Source: Candidatus Spongiisociaceae bacterium
Lineage (GTDB): Bacteria > Actinomycetota > Acidimicrobiia > Spongiisociales > Spongiisociaceae
Assembly: GCA_965262915.1 (NCBI GenBank)
Contig: OZ253564.1
Location: 4,192,001-4,256,000, forward strand
Direction of reading: 5' to 3'
Length of the DNA: 64,000 nt
The position numbers and the translations under genes are program-made. Below are positions 21,779 to 35,185 of this stretch, in pieces. The notes below the pieces were generated by a model, which was not told the origin of the DNA, ran no database searches, and saw only the letters and a program-made list of their open reading frames with translations. Positions within the stretch are counted from its first letter, which is position 1. The number at the start of each line of letters is the position of its first letter.

Positions 21779-23830
21779 TCACCCTGCGTAAACGGCGGGG
21801 TCGCGGCTTACCACGATCTCGCCCGAGACGATCTTCTCCTTGAACCCGTCGAGCTGAGCCGCTATATCGCCCACGTGCCCGCCGGTGGTCGAATACCCGA
21901 CCCCATCCACCGACAGGTCGAACCTCTGCTCACCCGCGGCGAACGTACCCGCCTGCACCGCCCGGATAGTGTCGAACACCGCTACGTCCACCCGCTTCAG
22001 CATCGACGTCAGAATGTATGGCTGGAAGTCCTCACCGGCCGTCAGGTACTGATCCGAATCCACCCCGATCGCCCACACATGGGTGTTGTTCGCCTCCGAG
22101 TAATCCTTGGCGGCCTGGAACAGCCCCCCACCCGTACCGCCCGCCGCGTGATAGACCACATCGGCGCCCTGCTCGAACATCGACTGGGCAATCACCCGCC
22201 CAGCCGCCGGATCGTTGAAACCACTGAAATCAGGCGGCTCCGTCACGTACTGGGAGATCACCTGGATGGACGGATCCACCGCCTGCACACCCGCCAGGAA
22301 CCCGGCCTCGAAAGCATGGATCAAAGGAATGTTAACCCCACCTATGTAGCCGACGATACCGCTCTCGGTCTTCAACGCAGCGGCCGCCCCGACCAAGAAC
22401 GAGCCCTGCTCCTCCGAGAACAACAACCCGGCCACATTCGGAGCGTCCACAGACGAGTCCACGATCGCGAAGCTGGTCTCGGGAAACTCTGCGGCCACAG
22501 CGGCCATCGGCTCAGCGAACAGGAACCCGACCCCGATCACCAGATCGGCTCCCTCCGACGCCTGAAGCGCCAGCAGCTCCTCACGGTTGGTCCCGTCCTC
22601 GTTGGCTGAAGCCTCCGAGAAGGTGACACCCAGCTCGGTGGAGGCCCGATCGAGGCCCGCCGCCGCCGCATCGTTGAACGACTGGTCCCCCCGACCGCCG
22701 ATGTCATAAACCAAACCGATCCTGATCGAAGGCAGAACAACCTCTAGTTCGGCGGGGTCGCGGCTTACCACGATCTCGCCCGAGACGATCTTCTCCTTGA
22801 ACCCGTCGAGCTGAGCCGCTATATCGCCCACGTGCCCGCCGGTGGTCGAATACCCGACCCCATCCACCGACAGGTCGAACCTCTGCTCACCCGCGGCGAA
22901 CGTACCCGCCTGCACCGCCCGGATAGTGTCGAACACCGCTACGTCCACCCGCTTCAGCATCGACGTCAGAATGTATGGCTGGAAGTCCTCACCGGCCGTC
23001 AGGTACTGATCCGAATCCACCCCGATCGCCCACACATGGGTGTTGTTCGCCTCCGAGTAATCCTTGGCGGCCTGGAACAGCCCCCCACCCGTACCGCCCG
23101 CCGCGTGATAGACCACATCGGCGCCCTGCTCGAACATCGACTGGGCAATCACCCGCCCAGCCGCCGGATCGTTGAAACCACTGAAATCAGGCGGCTCCGT
23201 CACGTACTGGGAGATCACCTGGATGGACGGATCCACCGCCTGCACACCCGCCAGGAACCCGGCCTCGAAAGCATGGATCAAAGGAATGTTAACCCCACCT
23301 ATGTAGCCGACGATACCGCTCTCGGTCTTCAACGCAGCGGCCGCCCCGACCAAGAACGAGCCCTGCTCCTCCGAGAACAACAACCCGGCCACATTCGGAG
23401 CGTCCACAGACGAGTCCACGATCGCGAAGCTGGTCTCGGGAAACTCTGCGGCCACAGCGGCCATCGGCTCAGCGAACAGGAACCCGACCCCGATCACCAG
23501 ATCGGCTCCCTCCGACGCCTGAAGCGCCAGCAGCTCCTCACGGTTGGTCCCGTCCTCGTTGGCTGAAGCCTCCGAGAAGGTGACACCCAGCTCGGTGGAG
23601 GCCCGATCGAGGCCCGCCGCCGCCGCATCGTTGAACGACTGGTCCCCCCGACCGCCGATGTCATAAACCAAACCGATCCTGATCGGCTCACCTGCCGGGG
23701 CCTGGGTGGCTGAGGGGGTCTCGGAGGTTGCCTGGGTTGTGGTCGTCCCCGGCTCCTCATCACCGCCGCAAGCCGCTGCCAGCAACGCGAACGCCGCCAG
23801 CGCGATGAACAACCTCGTCTTTGTGTACAT
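21779..23830 (-). CDS. BMP-family nucleoside-binding lipoprotein with two tandem BMP domains
   Basis: Lipobox LAAACG, GGRGDQSFND, EQGSFLVG, IGVDSDQ, SMLKRVD each twice; ATG 23830 with AGGAGG RBS. Confidence 0.92.
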   Translation of the reverse strand: MYTKTRLFIALAAFALLAAACGGDEEPGTTTTQATSETPSATQAPAGEPIRIGLVYDIGGRGDQSFNDAAAAGLDRASTELGVTFSEASANEDGTNREELLALQASEGADLVIGVGFLFAEPMAAVAAEFPETSFAIVDSSVDAPNVAGLLFSEEQGSFLVGAAAALKTESGIVGYIGGVNIPLIHAFEAGFLAGVQAVDPSIQVISQYVTEPPDFSGFNDPAAGRVIAQSMFEQGADVVYHAAGGTGGGLFQAAKDYSEANNTHVWAIGVDSDQYLTAGEDFQPYILTSMLKRVDVAVFDTIRAVQAGTFAAGEQRFDLSVDGVGYSTTGGHVGDIAAQLDGFKEKIVSGEIVVSRDPAELEVVLPSIRIGLVYDIGGRGDQSFNDAAAAGLDRASTELGVTFSEASANEDGTNREELLALQASEGADLVIGVGFLFAEPMAAVAAEFPETSFAIVDSSVDAPNVAGLLFSEEQGSFLVGAAAALKTESGIVGYIGGVNIPLIHAFEAGFLAGVQAVDPSIQVISQYVTEPPDFSGFNDPAAGRVIAQSMFEQGADVVYHAAGGTGGGLFQAAKDYSEANNTHVWAIGVDSDQYLTAGEDFQPYILTSMLKRVDVAVFDTIRAVQAGTFAAGEQRFDLSVDGVGYSTTGGHVGDIAAQLDGFKEKIVSGEIVVSRDPAVYAG
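21793..23685. repeat. 936-bp direct repeat (21793-22728 and 22750-23685) with 21-bp unique spacer
   Basis: Offset 957; alternative-frame ORFs 21875..22609 and 22832..23566 translate identically; no mismatch seen by eye. Confidence 0.93.
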
Positions 23831-23997
23831 GGTCTCAGTTCCTCCTACTCGCACCCCCGCCACAGGGATACCCGCTCCGACAGTCTACGCCGCCCGGAGT
23901 CCGGTAGCCAGTGGCGGAGCCGGCGGCCGGTGGACAAATAGTGGTGGGCAGATAGTGGACGGACTACCGGCGGGCAGTGGCCGGTAGGCCGGTGTGG

Positions 23998-26478
23998 CTA
24001 CGAGCCGGAGTCGACCAGGTCTACGGGTGGGATGTCGGGCGTGTCGACCATTTCGAAGAACAGGCCCTCGCCCTCGGGGTCCGCATCCACCACGATGGTG
24101 GTACCGGACCGGTACTCGCCCAGCAATACCTGCTCGGCCAGCGGGTCCTCCAGGAACCGCTGGATGGCCCGCCTCAGAGGACGGGCGCCGAGTTGGCGGT
24201 CATAGCCGATCCTGACCAGGAACGTCTTGGCCGCGTCGCTCAGGACCAGGTTGAGCGCTTGGGTGGCGAGTTGTTCACGGTCCCTCACCAGCAGCAGGTC
24301 GACGATCTGCTTGACCTCGTCCTCCGTGAGCTGGTGGAAAACGATCACCTCGTCGATCCGGTTGAGGAACTCGGGACGGAAGTGGCGCTTGAGCTCGTCG
24401 GTCAGCTTCTGCTTCATCTTCTCGTAGCTGACCTCATGGCTCTCGTGCTGGAAGCCCACCGACCGCTTGTGGAGGGCCTCCGAACCCAGGTTGGAGGTCA
24501 TGATGATGACGGTGTTCTTGAAGTCCACCGTCCGACCCTGGGCGTCGGTCAGCCGGCCGTCCTCCAGGATCTGCAGCAGGGTGTTGAAGACATCGGAATG
24601 GGCTTTCTCGATCTCGTCGAAGAGCACCACCGAGAAGGGCTTCCGCCGGACCGACTCGGTGAGTTGCCCGCCCTCGCCGTAGCCCACGTACCCGGGTGGG
24701 GATCCCAGCAGGCGGCTGACCGTGTGCTTCTCCATGTACTCGGACATGTCGAGCTGGATGAGGGAGTCCTCGTCGCCGAACAGGAACTCGGCGAGGGCCT
24801 TGGCGGTCTCGGTCTTTCCTACTCCCGACGGACCCAGGAAGACGAAGGACCCGCTGGGCCGCTTGGGGTCCTTGAGGCCAGCTCTCGTGCGCCTGATCGC
24901 CCGGCTCACCGCCGAAATCCCGTCGTGCTGCCCGATGATCCGCTTGTGCAGTTCCTCCTCCATGTGGACCAACCGGGCGGTCTCCTCCTCGGTCAGGCGG
25001 TGGACGGGGATGCCGGTCCATTGTGCCAGCACGTCGGCGATCTCGTCTTCGTCTATCACCGAATCGTCGGTCGCGCCCAGCTCGGATTGCCGCCGGGCCC
25101 GGTCAGAGAGCAGGGCCCGTTCCTGGTCACGGAGCTGGGCGGCCCGCTCGAACTGCTGGGCCGACACGGCCTGCATCTTGTCCTTGCGCACCGCGCTCAA
25201 CTGATCATCGATCTGCTTGACCTGGGGGCTGGAACTGATGCGGAAGATGCGGTTGCGGCTGCCGGCCTCGTCGATCAGGTCTATGGCCTTGTCGGGCAGG
25301 AACCGGTCCGAGATGTAGCGGTCCGCCAGGTTGGCGGCCGTCTTGAGGGCGCTGTCGGTGAAGCGCACCGAATGGTGGGCCTCGTAGCGATCCCTCAGAC
25401 CATGGAGGATGAGCACCGTCTCGGCCACCGTGGGTTCGTCGACGTGGATCGGCTGGAAACGCCGTTCCAACGCCGAGTCCTTCTCCAGGTACTTGCGGTA
25501 CTCCTCGAGGGTGGTAGCGCCCACCGTCTGGAGTTCGCCCCGGGCCAGCATGGGTTTGAGGATGCTGGCGGCGTCGATGGCTCCTTCGGCTGCACCGGCG
25601 CCCACCAGGGTGTGGATCTCGTCTATGAAGAGGATGATGTCCCCTCGGGTCTTGATCTCCTTCAGTACCTTCTTGAGGCGCTCCTCGAAGTCCCCCCGGT
25701 ACCGGGAGCCGGCCACCAGCGCCCCGAGGTCAAGCGTGTATATGGACTTCGACGTGAGGGTGTCGGGAACCTCCGAGGCCACGATGCGCTGAGCCAGACC
25801 CTCCACGATGGCGGTCTTCCCCACCCCCGGTTCGCCGATCAGTACCGGGTTGTTCTTGGAACGCCGCGACAGGATCTGCATGACCCGCTCTATCTCGGTA
25901 CGGCGTCCTATGACCGGGTCGAGGTCATGGTCGCGGGCCATGGTGGTCAGGTTGCGGCCAAACTGGTCGAGCACGGTGGATCCCGATACCGGGGATCCCC
26001 TCCCCGAGGGCGCGGTGCCGGCCGGTGCGGGCTCGTCGCCCGAGCCTCCGGACAGCAACTGGATGACCGTGTGGCGCACCTTGGGGAGGTCGGCGCCCAG
26101 CTTCTCGAGCACTTGGGCGGCGACGCCGTCCCCTTCCCGGATCAGGCCCAGCAGGATGTGCTCGGTACCGATGTAGTTGTGCCCCAACTGCAGAGCTTCG
26201 CGCAGGCTCAACTCCAGTACCTTCTTGGCCCGGGGGGTGAACGGTATGTGGCCGGACGGAGACTGGTGACCCTGGCCGATGGTATCCACAACCTGGCTGC
26301 GCACCGAATCGAGGCGAATGCCGAGACTCTGGAGACCGCGGGCCGCCACGCCCTCTCCCTCGTGGATCAGGCCCAACAGGATGTGCTCGGTACCGATGTA
26401 GTTGTGGTTGAGTAACCGGGCCTCTTCCTGTGCCAGCACCACCACCCGACGGGCGCGGTCGGTGAAGCGTTCAAACAC
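23998..26478 (-). CDS. clpC: ATP-dependent Clp protease ATP-binding subunit ClpC
   Basis: [21 protein letters not shown]-domain, GEPGVGKT and GPSGVGKT Walker A motifs, GARPLRR. Confidence 0.97.
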
Positions 26479-27847: not shown

Positions 27848-27918
27848 GGGTGCCAGTTGTCAGGTGCCAGACAACCAGCACCTGGCACCTGGCACCTGGC
27901 ACCTGGCACCTGGCACCT
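27848..27918. repeat. Heptamer repeat (GGCACCT)5 with inverted heptamers
   Basis: GGGTGCC AGTTGTC AGGTGCC / GACAACC AGCACCT (GGCACCT)5; last unit overlaps the lysS stop. Confidence 0.9.
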
Positions 27919-30426: not shown

Positions 30427-30517
30427 AGTGGTCAGTGGTCAGGTGCCAGGTGCCAGGTGCCAGGTGCCAGGTGCCAGGTGCCAGGTGCCAGGTGCCAGGT
30501 GCCAGGTGCCGGGTGCC
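30427..30517. repeat. Heptamer tandem repeat (AGGTGCC)10
   Basis: Ten perfect units 30441-30510, flanked by AGTGGTC x2 and GGGTGCC; opposite orientation to the arrays at 17.7 and 27.9 kb. Confidence 0.95.
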
Positions 30518-31479
30518 GGTGATATTTCACGGGTGCACGAGCCGAGGGCTTTCCGACTATCGGATGCCGCCCGGCTGACCGTACTGTAGAGCACGCTGGG
30601 TCGTTCCAACCACACGCCGCGATCCGCTTCGGCGACCCGGTCGCCGACCGAGAACCGCACGTTGTCGATGAGGCGAACCGGACCGATACGGGCGGCGGCG
30701 GCGAGCACTACCTCCCCTTCTACGCAGGAAACCGGAGCCATGGTGGTGGCGTCGCACGTCTCGGCATACTCGATCGCGGCGGGGTCGAGGGCGTTCCGGA
30801 CCGCCCCCTCGAGAGCACCCGCCCCTCGCTCACCGGCCTCGAACAGCCCGGCCGCCTCCATCAGGCCATGGGAGAGTCCCAGGGCCTTCTCCCGGTGAGC
30901 GCCGAGCAGCACGTTCCGGGACGACAGCGCCAGGCCGTCGGCTTCGCGGATCAGGGGGCAGCCCACCACCTCCAGGGGAAAGCCCAGATCGGACGCCAGC
31001 CGGGTCACCATCGCCAGCTGCTGGGCGTCCTTGCGGCCGAAGTAGGCGACATCGGGCTGCAGTCCCGCGAACAGCTTGGTCACCACCGTCGCCACGCCCG
31101 TCATGTGACCGGGCCGGTACACACCTTCCAGTCGATCCCCGATTCCCGCCACCGATACCTCGGTGAGCGGCGCGGTGGGAAACATCTCGGCGGCTTCGGG
31201 AACCACCATCACATCCACGCCGACCTCTTCCGCCAGGGCCAGATCACGGTCGTGATCGACCGGGTAGCGAGCCAGGTCGGCCGGTTCCTCGAACTGCAGG
31301 GGATTCACGTACAGCGTGGCCACGGTCTGATCACACTCGGCCACAGACCTCTCCATGAGGGAGAGATGGCCCTCGTGGAAGAAACCCATGGTCGGGACGA
31401 GACCGACCAACCCGCGTGCCATGGTCCGGGCCTCCGCCATAGTCCCCACGACCTTCACGCGGAGCGGCTCCTCACCCAT
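30439..31479 (-). CDS. panC: Pantoate--beta-alanine ligase with repeat-derived C-terminal tail
   Basis: VPTMGFFHEGH, VNPLQF, FGRKDAQQ, GLALSSRN, RLIDN. Confidence 0.94.
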   Translation of the reverse strand: MGEEPLRVKVVGTMAEARTMARGLVGLVPTMGFFHEGHLSLMERSVAECDQTVATLYVNPLQFEEPADLARYPVDHDRDLALAEEVGVDVMVVPEAAEMFPTAPLTEVSVAGIGDRLEGVYRPGHMTGVATVVTKLFAGLQPDVAYFGRKDAQQLAMVTRLASDLGFPLEVVGCPLIREADGLALSSRNVLLGAHREKALGLSHGLMEAAGLFEAGERGAGALEGAVRNALDPAAIEYAETCDATTMAPVSCVEGEVVLAAAARIGPVRLIDNVRFSVGDRVAEADRGVWLERPSVLYSTVSRAASDSRKALGSCTREISPAPGTWHLAPGTWHLAPGTWHLAPGT

Positions 31480-32422: not shown

Positions 32423-32953
32423 TTAGGAGAGTCCCGGCCGATCCACCAGCGGCCGAGCCTCGTCTCCCCGCCAGCCGAGTCCCTCGATCCTGCGGAGAGG
32501 CTGGTCAGCCACGCCGGGCAGCAGGTCCGCCACGAGGGTGCCGTCCGGATCACGGATGCCGGGCCAGACCTCCACCAGCGGCTCCAGCACGAAGCGGCGT
32601 TCCCGGTAGCGGGGATGCGGTACCGTGACCGCGGCCGTGCGGATCGACGTGTCGCCGTGAAGTATCAGATCGAGGTCGATCAAGCGCGGACCCCACCGTC
32701 GGCCCCGCACGCGGCCCAGCGCGGTCTCTATCGACAGCAGGCGACCCACCATTGCCTCCGCTCCCAGCGGGGTTTCCACGACCGCTACCGCGTTGTAGAA
32801 CGGATCCTGGGGTACTCCACCCACGGGTTCGGTCTCGTAGAGACGGGACAGGGCAACCAAGTTGCCCAAGCCCTCCAGCCGGACCGCCGCCGAGTAGAGA
32901 TTGGCCAACCGGTCGCCCATGTTGGAACCCAGGGATATGACAGCCGGCGGCAT
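32423..32953 (-). CDS. folK: 2-amino-4-hydroxy-6-hydroxymethyldihydropteridine diphosphokinase
   Basis: SLGSNMGD, YETEPVG, RWGPRLIDLD, VPHPR, RRFVL. Confidence 0.94.
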   Translation of the reverse strand: MPPAVISLGSNMGDRLANLYSAAVRLEGLGNLVALSRLYETEPVGGVPQDPFYNAVAVVETPLGAEAMVGRLLSIETALGRVRGRRWGPRLIDLDLILHGDTSIRTAAVTVPHPRYRERRFVLEPLVEVWPGIRDPDGTLVADLLPGVADQPLRRIEGLGWRGDEARPLVDRPGLS

Positions 32954-32958
32954 GCGGG

Positions 32959-33807
32959 TCAGGTATGAGGGGAATGCCGGACGACCGTCACCGCCACGTC
33001 CTCGAACCCCACCCTGATCGGCGCCTCCGGTTTGTGCACCGTCACCTCCACCCGGATGACCCGCCTGTTCTCGAGAACCAGGTCCGCCACCCGCTCGGCG
33101 ACCGTCTCGATCAGGTTCCACTGCTCGCCCGACACCCGGCGGTGGATCGCCTCCGCCACAAGCCCGTAGTCGAGTGTGTTGGAGAGGTCGTCGGTGCGGG
33201 CCGCCGCCGACACGTCCAGCCGGGCCATCACATCCACGACGAAGGTCTGGCCCTCCGCCCGCTCCTCCTCGGTCACTCCGTGGCGGGCCGGTATGCGAAG
33301 ACCCTTCAACGTGATCGAGTCGACCGGAGCGCGGGCGTAAACCGGACCCGACCCGGGTGGGTCCTCGCCCGCACCTCCGGACAGTAACCGGAGGACCGAA
33401 TGGCGAATCTCGGAAAGGTCAGCGCCGATCTCATCCAAGACCTGAGCGGCGACACCGTCCCCTTCCCGAATCAGGCCCAGCAGGATGTGCTCGGTACCGA
33501 TGTAGTTGTGCCCCAACTGCAGAGCTTCGCGCAAGCTCAACTCCAGTACCTTCTTGGCCCGGGGGGTGAACGGTATGTGCCCGGAGAGGGACTGGTGACC
33601 CTTGCCGGTTTTCTCCAGCACCTGGCTGCGCACCGAATCGAAGCGAATGCCGAGACTCTGGAGACCGCGGGCCGCCACGCCCTCTCCCTCGTGGATCAGG
33701 CCCAACAGGATGTGCTCGGTACCGATGTAGTGGTGGTTGAGCAGCCCGGCCTCTTCCTGTGCCAGCACCACCACCCGGCGGGCGGGGTCGGTGAAACGTT
33801 CAAACAC
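32959..33807 (-). CDS. folB: Fusion: ClpC N-terminal (Clp repeat) domain + dihydroneopterin aldolase
   Basis: Residues 1-145 closely match ClpC of this window; C-half DSITLKGL..HGV..EER..GQ, TLDY, LIET, VHKP is FolB; folB position before folK. Confidence 0.92.
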   Translation of the reverse strand: MFERFTDPARRVVVLAQEEAGLLNHHYIGTEHILLGLIHEGEGVAARGLQSLGIRFDSVRSQVLEKTGKGHQSLSGHIPFTPRAKKVLELSLREALQLGHNYIGTEHILLGLIREGDGVAAQVLDEIGADLSEIRHSVLRLLSGGAGEDPPGSGPVYARAPVDSITLKGLRIPARHGVTEEERAEGQTFVVDVMARLDVSAAARTDDLSNTLDYGLVAEAIHRRVSGEQWNLIETVAERVADLVLENRRVIRVEVTVHKPEAPIRVGFEDVAVTVVRHSPHT

Positions 33808-33858
33808 GGCCGGCCCGACTCTCCGAGCTCAACCGGATCGCACCCGCCGGAGCCGCAT

Positions 33859-34338
33859 TCAACCCCCCGCCGCCGGAATCAGCGCCCGGGCGCGGGGACC
33901 GAGCGGTCTCCCGATGATCTCCTGTATGACCATGGCGGCGATCCGTTGGTCCTTCACCAGGCCCGCGAACACCACGTACCCGGCCAGGATCCCCGCCACC
34001 GCATCGTCCACGAAGTCGCGGTGGACCAGTACCCGGGCGTCCGGGCGGGCCAACGCATCGTGGATGGTGGCGAAGGCCAGGTCGACGGCGGACCGGTCGG
34101 AATCGAGATCGACCGGCGCCACGTGCACCTCAAGGCCCGCCCCCTCGTAGCTGTTGACGTTCTGGGCTCCCGGAAGCAGCGACACCACCGTCGTGAACTC
34201 CTCCTCCACCAGCCAGGCGATCTCCTCCTCGCGGCGCACCCGACGGTGCTGGAATCCCTGACCCCCGATCCGCGCCGAAGTGGCCAGCCGACTCCCGATC
34301 ACCCAGGCAAAATCACGCGGCTTCAGTCCTGTCTTCAT
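33859..34338 (-). CDS. Protein-tyrosine/dual-specificity phosphatase-like protein lacking the catalytic CX5R motif
   Basis: FAWVIGSRLA, FTTVVSL, VLVHRDFVDDAVAGILAGY in the position of VLVHCxxGxxRTG; overlaps the folP end. Confidence 0.6.
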   Translation of the reverse strand: MKTGLKPRDFAWVIGSRLATSARIGGQGFQHRRVRREEEIAWLVEEEFTTVVSLLPGAQNVNSYEGAGLEVHVAPVDLDSDRSAVDLAFATIHDALARPDARVLVHRDFVDDAVAGILAGYVVFAGLVKDQRIAAMVIQEIIGRPLGPRARALIPAAGG

Positions 34339-35185
34339 CACCATCACCCATCTGACGCACCATAGCGTCAGCCAGAGCCAACGCGTCGCGGGTTGTTGCA
34401 ACATCGTGAACTCTCACGATCGAGGCGCCGTTCATGGCACAGATCCCGGACGAGACGGCTGTCACCACGTCCCGCTCCTCGACGGACCGCCCGGTGAGCG
34501 CACCGAGAAAGGCCTTCCGGGAGGTCCCCACCAGGACGGGCACGCCGTCGGCGGCCAGCACCGGCAACCCGTTCAGCAGGGCCAGGTTGTGCGCGATCGT
34601 CTTGCCGAATCCGATGCCGGGATCGATCGCCATCGCCCGCCGGTCGACCCCCGCTGCTTCCCCCGCCTCGATCCTGTGCCGGAGGTATCGGCGGATCTCC
34701 CCGACCACGTCGTCATAGGTGGGATCCTTCTGCATGGTGCGCGGGTTGCCGCGCATGTGCATCAGGACGACGCCTACCCTCGACGAGGCACACACCTCGG
34801 CCATTCCCTCGGCTTCGAAGGCGGTCACGTCGTTGACCACCACCGCTCCCGCCGCGACGGCCTCCGCCGCCACCTTCGGCTTCGAGGTGTTGATCGATAC
34901 CCGGACGTCGCGGGCGGCCAAGCGTTCCACCACGCCCACGACCCGCCGCAACTCCTCCGCCTCCTCCACCTCATCGGCGCCGGGCCGGGTGGACTCACCG
35001 CCCACATCCACCAGATGGGCGCCCTGGTCCCGGAGGCGGAGACCGTGGGCGACGGCGCGGTCCTCGTGGAGGAAGCGCCCCCCGTCCGAAAAGGAATCGG
35101 GCGTGGCATTGACCACCCCCATCACCAGCGTGCCCTCGTTGGGATCGAGGACCGCCCCCCGAACGTGCCATGTCGGTCGTTTCAA
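34313..35185 (-). CDS. folP: Dihydropteroate synthase
   Basis: [44 protein letters not shown]; TTG start overlapping the folE stop. Confidence 0.95.

Follow-up and report, generated by a model that had tools for sequence, protein, structure and literature searches.

A ClpC-like N-terminal domain fused to dihydroneopterin aldolase (FolB) in the folate operon of an Acidimicrobiia bacterium

The fused gene and its surroundings

The window analysed here, the whole stretch of 64,000 nucleotides taken from contig OZ253564.1 (positions 4,192,001 to 4,256,000) of a Candidatus Spongiisociaceae bacterium, contains a gene in which a ClpC-derived N-terminal domain (N-domain) is joined to dihydroneopterin aldolase (FolB). 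The coordinates of the gene, its parts and the neighbouring features are given in Table 1. Pfam recognises both halves of the product: Clp_N (PF02861), in two repeats, at E 3.1e-32, and FolB, spanning residues 165-275, at E 3.1e-35. Between them lies a disordered linker of 15 aa (GGAGEDPPGSGPVYARAP), the first part of which is still derived from the segment joining the N-terminal domain to D1 in ClpC. The initial annotation, made from the sequence alone, had described the same order of N-domain, Pro/Gly linker and FolB, and what it observed is borne out in every detail.

The fusion is one intact gene. Both Pfam domains occur together in 43 of the 120 best database clusters, which come from several sources, show identities of 54-97% and lie on contigs of up to 3.7 Mb; some of them are named by NCBI "dihydroneopterin aldolase [Acidimicrobiia bacterium]". 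Such recurrence goes far beyond what coincidence would give. An intact full-length frame is present in 13 of 61 related genomes, belonging to three families (f1, f5 and f8) of one Acidimicrobiia order: five from one genus (G000, G001, G002, G004 and G007), G018, a group of three (G021, G022 and G028), and the pairs G032/G043 and G035/G055. Statements on family f5 refer to G032 and G043, both unpublished genomes. A TGA inside the G035 and G055 matches was considered as a disruption and rejected; it lies outside the gene, and both frames are intact. The stretch was also found in 16 public runs from at least seven studies. Two contigs from independent studies, X10 record 3 (33025-33499) and X3 record 27 (33032-33499), connect FolB with the N-domain across the linker, unbroken and with 0 mismatches. 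Near-identical N-domain copies 7 kb apart might mislead an assembler, and short-read contigs do break at stretches common to both copies, but a chimera of clpC and folB is refuted by these bridging contigs, by the 19 amino-acid differences from the clpC N-domain, and by orthologues in the database clusters and in the 13 genomes; we give it practically no credence. The initial annotation had argued against a simple assembly chimera, and in this it was right.

The N-domain closely resembles that of the ClpC encoded in the same window, the two genes being 7.3 kb apart from start to start. The two proteins share 133 of 169 residues (BLASTP). Residues 1-145 contain 19 differences, in agreement with the initial annotation, which had given about 19 substitutions for this span. 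At the DNA level the N-domain coding part is 91% identical to the clpC 5′-end, and both genes begin with GTG TTT GAA; the upstream sequences are unrelated except for a weak likeness near the Shine-Dalgarno site (GGAGAG vs GGAGG). A phmmer comparison with the N-domain structures of mycobacterial ClpC1 gave E about 1e-67. The two Clp_N repeats are predicted to make a single helical domain of about 145 residues, with 8 helices at a predicted local distance difference test score (pLDDT) of about 90. The open reading frame (ORF) ends at residue 282 in FolB, and Pfam detects no AAA+ D1 or D2 module; since neither follows the N-domain, the fusion is not an unfoldase.

The FolB half scores 121.5 bits against a curated cut-off of 31.8 and covers profile positions 1-112 of 113 (PF02152). 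It aligns without gaps to the mycobacterial structure 1nbu (E 1.7e-27; fusion residue = chain residue + 160). An alignment of 42 fused sequences, comprising the window gene and 41 of the 43 fused clusters (two partial clusters were excluded), reveals that E182, Y214, E234 and K259, the motif residues picked out in the initial annotation, are invariant. We take these to be the catalytic residues, corresponding to positions 22, 54, 74 and 99-100 of solved enzymes. To judge from its sequence, the FolB part appears to be a normal, catalytically complete dihydroneopterin aldolase. FolB enzymes form tetramers or octamers, and by analogy with the family both the activity and such an assembly would be expected of the fusion. 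The linker varies from about 14 to 60 amino acids among the 42 homologues. An AlphaFold2 model based on the same alignment gave pLDDT values of about 90 for the N-domain, about 75-90 for FolB and below 50 for residues 145-160; the predicted template modelling score (pTM) of 0.56 suggests that the N-domain and FolB have no fixed orientation or contact.

Table 1. Coordinates of the fusion gene, its parts and related features in the window
Feature	Position	Strand	Remarks
ClpN-FolB fusion gene	32959..33807	-	282 codons + stop (32959-32961), GTG start; ORF list, Pfam
ClpC-derived N-domain, residues 1-145	33373..33807	-	Two Clp repeats, 8 predicted helices; Pfam, phmmer, AlphaFold2
Flexible Gly/Pro linker, residues 146-162	33322..33372	-	Low pLDDT; length variation among homologues; end of clpC homology
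FolB (dihydroneopterin aldolase) domain, residues 163-282	32962..33321	-	Pfam, 1nbu alignment
GGAGAG Shine-Dalgarno-like site	33819..33824	-	11 nt 5′ of the GTG of the fusion; read from sequence
clpC 5′-end, N-domain codons 1-150	26029..26478	-	Origin of the fused N-domain and its partner in conversion
clpC, full-length unfoldase, 826 aa	23998..26478	-	ORF list; Clp_N in 828-codon open frame
181-aa ORF (ORF181), between folP and folB	33859..34404	-	Conserved; without Pfam match
folK (HPPK)	32423..32955	-	Pfam HPPK; likely ATG 32953-32955, 3 nt past the fusion stop

The fusion occupies the folB position of a folate operon. The gene order, based on Pfam matches of the neighbours, is tilS, hpt, ftsH, folE, folP, ORF181, fusion, folK, DUF2520, panC, coaX and lysS, followed by a polyprenyl synthase gene on the opposite strand and then clpC; judged against the mycobacterial order, this is the usual actinobacterial arrangement around clpC and the fol genes. 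The initial annotation's statement that this is the only folB of the operon can be extended, the fusion being the sole FolB match in the whole 5.06-Mb single-contig genome. Three Clp_N proteins are encoded there: ClpC, the fusion, and an 866-aa protein at 48 kb. Relatives have ORF181 in this position whether or not they carry the fusion, and in those without it folB follows ORF181 directly, so that ORF181 marks the insertion point. Motifs in the ORF181 product (…HRRVRR… and …LVHRDFVDD…) recall a phosphatase-like fold, although this is an impression only.

Two further features of the window were recorded. An ORF of 694 aa (21779-23863, minus strand), encoding a PnrA/Bmp-type substrate-binding lipoprotein, contains a perfect tandem duplication with a period of 957 nt; the repeat finder listed 100% identity over 300 nt, and two identical 244-aa ORFs on the opposite strand confirm about 730 nt of the repeat. 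The domain may have been duplicated in frame very recently, or else the repeat is an artefact of assembly. The heptamer GCACCTG forms arrays at 27878-27918 (5.9 copies) and 30440-30521 (11.9 copies), in opposite orientations. They lie on gene borders, close to the stop of lysS and where panC ends and coaX starts, and give Cys-Gln-Val-Pro-Gly-Ala-Arg-like repeats in several overlapping ORF translations.

Relationship to clpC, distribution and related proteins

In a DNA tree of 44 N-domains the fusions do not form one clade, and at least six label changes are forced. The fusions of G000, G018 and G004 each pair with the clpC of their own genome, with support of 100/96 to 100/99. Forcing the nine f1 fusions into one clade lowers the log-likelihood by 155 units and is rejected (approximately unbiased test, p 2e-61); monophyly of the fusion N-domains of G000, G001, G002 and G007 is marginally rejected (p 0.046), this group having been named after the tree was seen. 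Differences between the fusion and clpC of G000 are arranged as a mosaic, with 0-2 per 45 nt in some parts (nt 91-180 and 226-360) and 10-15 in others (nt 181-225 and 361-450). The longest identical runs between the two genes measure 89, 64 and 45 nt, whereas those between orthologous clpC genes do not exceed 36 nt. Third codon positions differ at 26 of 150 sites between fusion and clpC in G000, compared to 57-68 of 150 between species; likewise, synonymous divergence (dS) from the genome's own clpC is 0.19-0.30 in G000, G018, G004 and G043, and about 0.75-0.9 between species.

The simplest reading of these data is repeated gene conversion between the fused N-domain and clpC. The long identical DNA tracts and the shared start remarked on in the initial annotation do exist, but the tracts are best read as products of conversion from clpC and not simply as the mark of a young duplication. 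Repeated re-duplication into an identical site would be a less simple alternative. In all seven genomes examined the clpC homology starts at the start codon (within 7 nt) and it ends at about codon 143-162; the insertion point behind ORF181 is identical among the fusions; the linkers and FolB domains of G000, G001, G002 and G007 make up one clade (100/97); and the substitution Q140R is found in 9 of 13 fusions, from three genera, and in 0 of 28 ClpC. This combination of common boundary, insertion point, linker and FolB clade, and R140 points to a single origin of the architecture. In an ancestor belonging to one Acidimicrobiia order, a copy of the clpC 5′-end came to lie ahead of folB; the copied part starts near the ribosome-binding site or the start codon and reaches codon 162 or so, covering the N-domain and some of its flexible linker.

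Exchange may also run from the fusion into clpC, the essential gene. Residues Y90, S136 and T140 of the G004 ClpC are unique among the 28 ClpC and identical in the fusion of that genome, which suggests a conversion in this direction.

A tree built from the ClpC body of 26 genomes (residues after 165) intermingles genomes with and without the fusion and implies 8 changes of state, of which at least 6 are forced. The fused folB of G001 groups with those of G002 and G007 (98/96), whereas its ClpC body groups with that of the unfused G003 (97), and its fusion stands at a dS of 1.33 from its own clpC; the grouping hints that the fused allele may have been exchanged laterally between species of the genus. 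A candidate N-domain relic in G019 (match to residues 110-278, two stops) overlaps the tail of the upstream ORF181 homologue and was not counted. Among 401 genomes sampled evenly across the class (E <=1e-35), the fusion turned up in G000 and G004 of family f1 only; this sample did not show the fusion-carrying families f5 and f8. The best 150 matches among 1.84 billion representatives, outside of which more distant fusions would fall, included one full fusion (P0174, Pfam-confirmed) and one partial one (P0066).

ClpC-like N-domains without an ATPase occur in other settings as well. G011 (L027, C174, 1364-2116), which had been a candidate for a fourth fused lineage, was rejected as such, the Pfam result being Clp_N + RidA and not FolB; in this genome, which belongs to the same Acidimicrobiia order as the fusion carriers, a partial sequence has a ClpC-like N-domain fused to a RidA/L-PSP domain. 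One of 23 RidA matches is a full-length Clp_N + RidA cluster (P0265, 285 aa). Clp_N + RidA is a second, rarer fusion of a Clp N-domain to an enzyme in Acidimicrobiia. Two other proteins were seen: a 280-aa product in G049 (L046, C20, 1541-2380), consisting of Clp_N and a hydrophobic, probably membrane-spanning tail and encoded directly upstream of clpC at 2705, and a 197-aa Clp_N protein with a Cys-rich tail in G031 (L047).

Many of the best matches among the 1.84 billion representatives have several matched stretches. Of eleven that were scanned with Pfam, seven are arrays of 4-15 Clp_N repeats in 309-1762 aa, equivalent to about two to seven or more N-domains, with no other domain above the curated cut-off and no AAA+ module found. 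These proteins (P0121, P0122, P0123, P0125, P0128, P0002 and P0036) are the highest-scoring relatives of the fused N-domain among the matches listed. FolB and RidA are both families of small homo-oligomeric enzymes, and the placing of several receptor domains on one particle that lacks the ATPase seems to be a recurrent design.

Selection on the N-domain and its possible function

The fused N-domain is under purifying selection about equal to that on FolB. The ratio of non-synonymous to synonymous divergence (dN/dS, omega) between orthologous fusions is 0.13-0.47 for the N-domain (13 pairs) and 0.14-0.36 for the FolB domain (20 pairs), values that speak against a neutrally evolving copy. For the ClpC N-domain omega is 0.00-0.06 (12 of the same 13 genome pairs, the clpC locus of G055 being left out); the fused N-domain is about ten times more relaxed. 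The ClpC N-domain is in fact nearly frozen, most positions being invariant in 28 of 28 ClpC, and several of these have changed in fusions: N26 in 9 of the 13 genomes, Q140 in 12 (mostly to R) and Y102 in 7. The f8 pair (G035/G055), which is the most diverged, stands at dN 0.28 from its own clpC, exhibits no sign of recent conversion, and has an omega of 0.21, with dS near saturation.

Twelve residues of ClpC1 are named in PMC11791199 as contacts of cyclomarin, ecumicin or rufomycin. At the corresponding groove positions (F2, E3, R4, V13, V14, Q17, H77, F80, K85, E89, L92 and L96) conservation in the 42 sequences is 0.80-1.00, with a mean of 0.958 compared to 0.841 for the whole N-domain, a value matched by 51 of 20,000 random 12-position sets. 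The retention of F2, F80, K85 and E89 had already been read from the window, and the cyclomarin-type groove as a whole proves to be conserved above the rest of the domain. More than 90% of the 42 sequences retain the first T6/GTEH site. The residues that we assume to make up the phospho-arginine (pArg) sites (R4, T6, T30, E31, T81, T105 and E106) are as a set not conserved above background in this alignment, 2778 of 20,000 random sets doing as well.

The reading that we consider the most likely, though we hold it tentatively, is that the product would be an active FolB oligomer which displays several mimics of the ClpC receptor and acts as a competitor or sponge. If the fusion assembles like other members of the FolB family, as tetramers or octamers, each particle would carry four to eight flexibly tethered receptor domains that lack an ATPase. 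The conserved hydrophobic H1/H5 groove and first T6/GTEH site suggest that it would bind the clients of the ClpC receptor, such as pArg-like tags, unfolded segments or receptor-targeting peptides; being unable to unfold them, it could buffer ClpC in the manner of a multivalent competitor, sponge or holdase, a role of the kind described for mycobacterial ClpC2 and ClpC3 (PMC13345244, PMC10864484). Conversion would preserve the likeness of the mimic to the receptor that it imitates. The initial annotation had put forward an octamer that serves as decoy or adaptor and couples proteolysis with folate synthesis, which is likewise an inference.

A number of observations weigh against this proposal. 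Close relatives, some of the same genus, have plain FolB; the fusion is not absent from relatives, being intact in 13 of 61, but the N-domain is dispensable in many of them. G013, the sister of the fused G022, has lost the N-domain by a deletion of about 358 nt, which left the first 21 codons of a fusion-type N-domain followed by a stop, with FolB starting from a new ATG in the old linker; in G046 there is a frameshift after about codon 88, possibly a sequencing error. Within the domain, 16 of the 42 fused sequences have Gly or Ala in place of E106 in the second GTEH motif, and 15 of the 39 that possess position 8 have another residue than R there, so not all receptor functions have been kept. 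The R8 to Pro change reported for the window fusion is correct there; it is not a trait of the family, 24 of these 39 sequences having kept R, and the assignment of R8 to a pArg pocket in the initial annotation found no confirmation in the literature consulted. The groove test used mutually related sequences and pooled buried with exposed residues, and conversion alone can, when the donor is so strongly constrained, depress the apparent omega and preserve groove residues. A search of the genome for a McsB-type arginine kinase (PF00217) gave no match. Finally, neither of two RNA-labelled runs gives clean cover of the fusion gene: X17, which is labelled as RNA only by conjecture, spans 33069-33411 with 0-1 differences, and X19 covers 33446-33900 only, its longest piece having 26 differences and maybe representing another organism or the clpC copy.

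Several of these points would suit an alternative that we judge unlikely yet not negligible, namely that a chance in-frame partial duplication of clpC landed on an essential gene and is tolerated as a passenger, harmless provided that it folds, patched by conversion and devoid of any ligand-related function. The patchy spread with repeated loss (the 8 state changes, the G013 relic and the G046 frameshift), the variation at many ClpC-invariant positions, and the capacity of conversion tracts to explain conserved stretches all agree with it. It fits poorly with an omega as low as that of the catalytic FolB domain, the long-diverged f8 pair included, with frames intact in 13 genomes of three families, with groove residues conserved above the rest of the N-domain, and with the independent recurrence of similar ATPase-less N-domain proteins.

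The N-domain could instead be a stress sensor acting in cis, in which pArg-type or unfolded ligands alter the tetramer-octamer equilibrium or the activity of FolB and so couple proteotoxic stress to folate synthesis; this we hold to be somewhat less probable again. The domain sits on the only FolB match of the genome and mostly retains the first T6/GTEH site, and the closest solved FolB was deposited in two forms, 1nbu and 1z9w, which we take to be octamer and tetramer. There is a precedent in ClpC2, where, according to PMC13345244, pArg binding disrupts oligomerisation and switches the output of the protein. A disordered linker of such variable length is nevertheless poorly suited to allosteric coupling, the model predicts no fixed domain contact, and relatives make folate without the N-domain. 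Far less probable than either is that one frame yields two products, FolB alone (through an internal start or linker cleavage) and a freed N-domain resembling ClpC2. The linker would be exposed and disordered, and the new ATG of G013 in this region serves FolB after the deletion, but between codons 129 and 166 of the window fusion there is no in-frame ATG, GTG or TTG; the first candidate is a TTG at codon 167, within the invariant first strand (D163-L167). FolB in this genome can therefore be made only with the N-domain attached.

Returning to the competitor or sponge, a broader version may be entertained, although we think it more probably wrong than right. The FolB oligomer would be a natural multivalent mimic of the ClpC receptor, kept matched to it by conversion and titrating receptor-directed ligands, whether pArg-tagged or unfolded proteins or receptor-targeting peptides from competitors; as conversion may run both ways, it could also supply new variants to the frozen ClpC N-domain; and FolB fusions, RidA fusions and arrays together would constitute one undescribed class of decoys of the Clp receptor, polyvalent and ATPase-less.

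An essential protease is addressed by its substrates, and by several natural antibiotics, through the ClpC N-domain as receptor. The recognition of the ATPase-less copies ClpC2 and ClpC3 as sponges or sensors is recent. The fusion represents a different route, with the receptor grafted on an essential enzyme of an oligomer-forming family and refreshed from clpC by conversion, and sister genomes with and without the N-domain provide natural controls. If the mimic binds ClpC ligands, it would offer a simple system for studying the buffering of a Clp receptor, the matching of decoy to target and the possible supply of variation to a drug-target domain that is normally invariant. Should it bind none of them, the fusion would remain a plain example of a domain and its fused paralogue evolving in concert, with loss on several occasions.

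Comparison with known systems

No description of ClpN-FolB, Clp_N arrays or ClpN-RidA was found in the literature searched, nor anything relevant on N-domain homologues as self-resistance against ligands of ClpC1. A catalogue of actinobacterial Clp unfoldases (PMC10149685, supplements not covered) does not mention FolB, ClpC2 or fusions. The fusion sequences themselves are already public, annotated simply as FolB.

Mycobacterial ClpC2 and ClpC3 are ATPase-less N-domain paralogues that bind the antibiotics of ClpC1 as sponges or competitors (PMC13345244, PMC10864484). The former adds that ClpC2 binds pArg, with one of two pArg sites conserved, that it is also a pArg-responsive repressor, and that the source of pArg in mycobacteria is stated to be unknown. 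The fusion resembles these proteins in having a ClpC receptor-like domain without AAA+ modules, in retaining the cyclomarin/rufomycin groove residues, and in the state of the pArg sites, one of which is often degenerate in fusions. It is not an orthologue of ClpC2, the matches to ClpC2 structures (6e-24 to 1e-18) being far weaker than those to ClpC1, and the stand-alone Clp N-domain protein 8b9o matches the fused N-domain at 8e-24 only. ClpC2-type regulators have an N-terminal DNA-binding/oligomerisation part, carry their N-domain-like module at the C-terminus and repress their own promoter. The fusion has no DNA-binding or repressor part, Pfam recognising only Clp_N and FolB; its Clp_N is N-terminal, its partner is a metabolic enzyme, and its N-domain is a recent paralogue still exchanging DNA with clpC.

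Compared to ClpC and ClpC1, the fusion possesses the same two Clp repeats, with 79-85% identity to same-family ClpC N-domains and with F2, R4, T6, Q17, F80, K85 and E89 retained. It differs in its length of 282 aa, in the absence of D1, M and D2, in evolving about ten times faster at non-synonymous sites, and in recurrent changes at the ClpC-invariant positions N26, Q140, Y102, E106 and R8. The second half is like actinobacterial FolB (1nbu/1z9w) in its gapless alignment, conserved catalytic residues and folE-folP-folB-folK position, and unlike it in carrying an N-terminal extension of 162 residues; the FolB fusion known from the PDB search (2cg8) is C-terminal, to HPPK. With the Clp_N arrays and ClpN-RidA it would share ClpC-like N-domains, several per particle, and the absence of an ATPase. 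The arrays achieve multivalency by repeats within one chain, whereas the fusion would do so through oligomerisation of its enzyme partner. We rate the fusion as a further form of the theme of ATPase-less ClpC receptor paralogues, with an unusual evolutionary mode.

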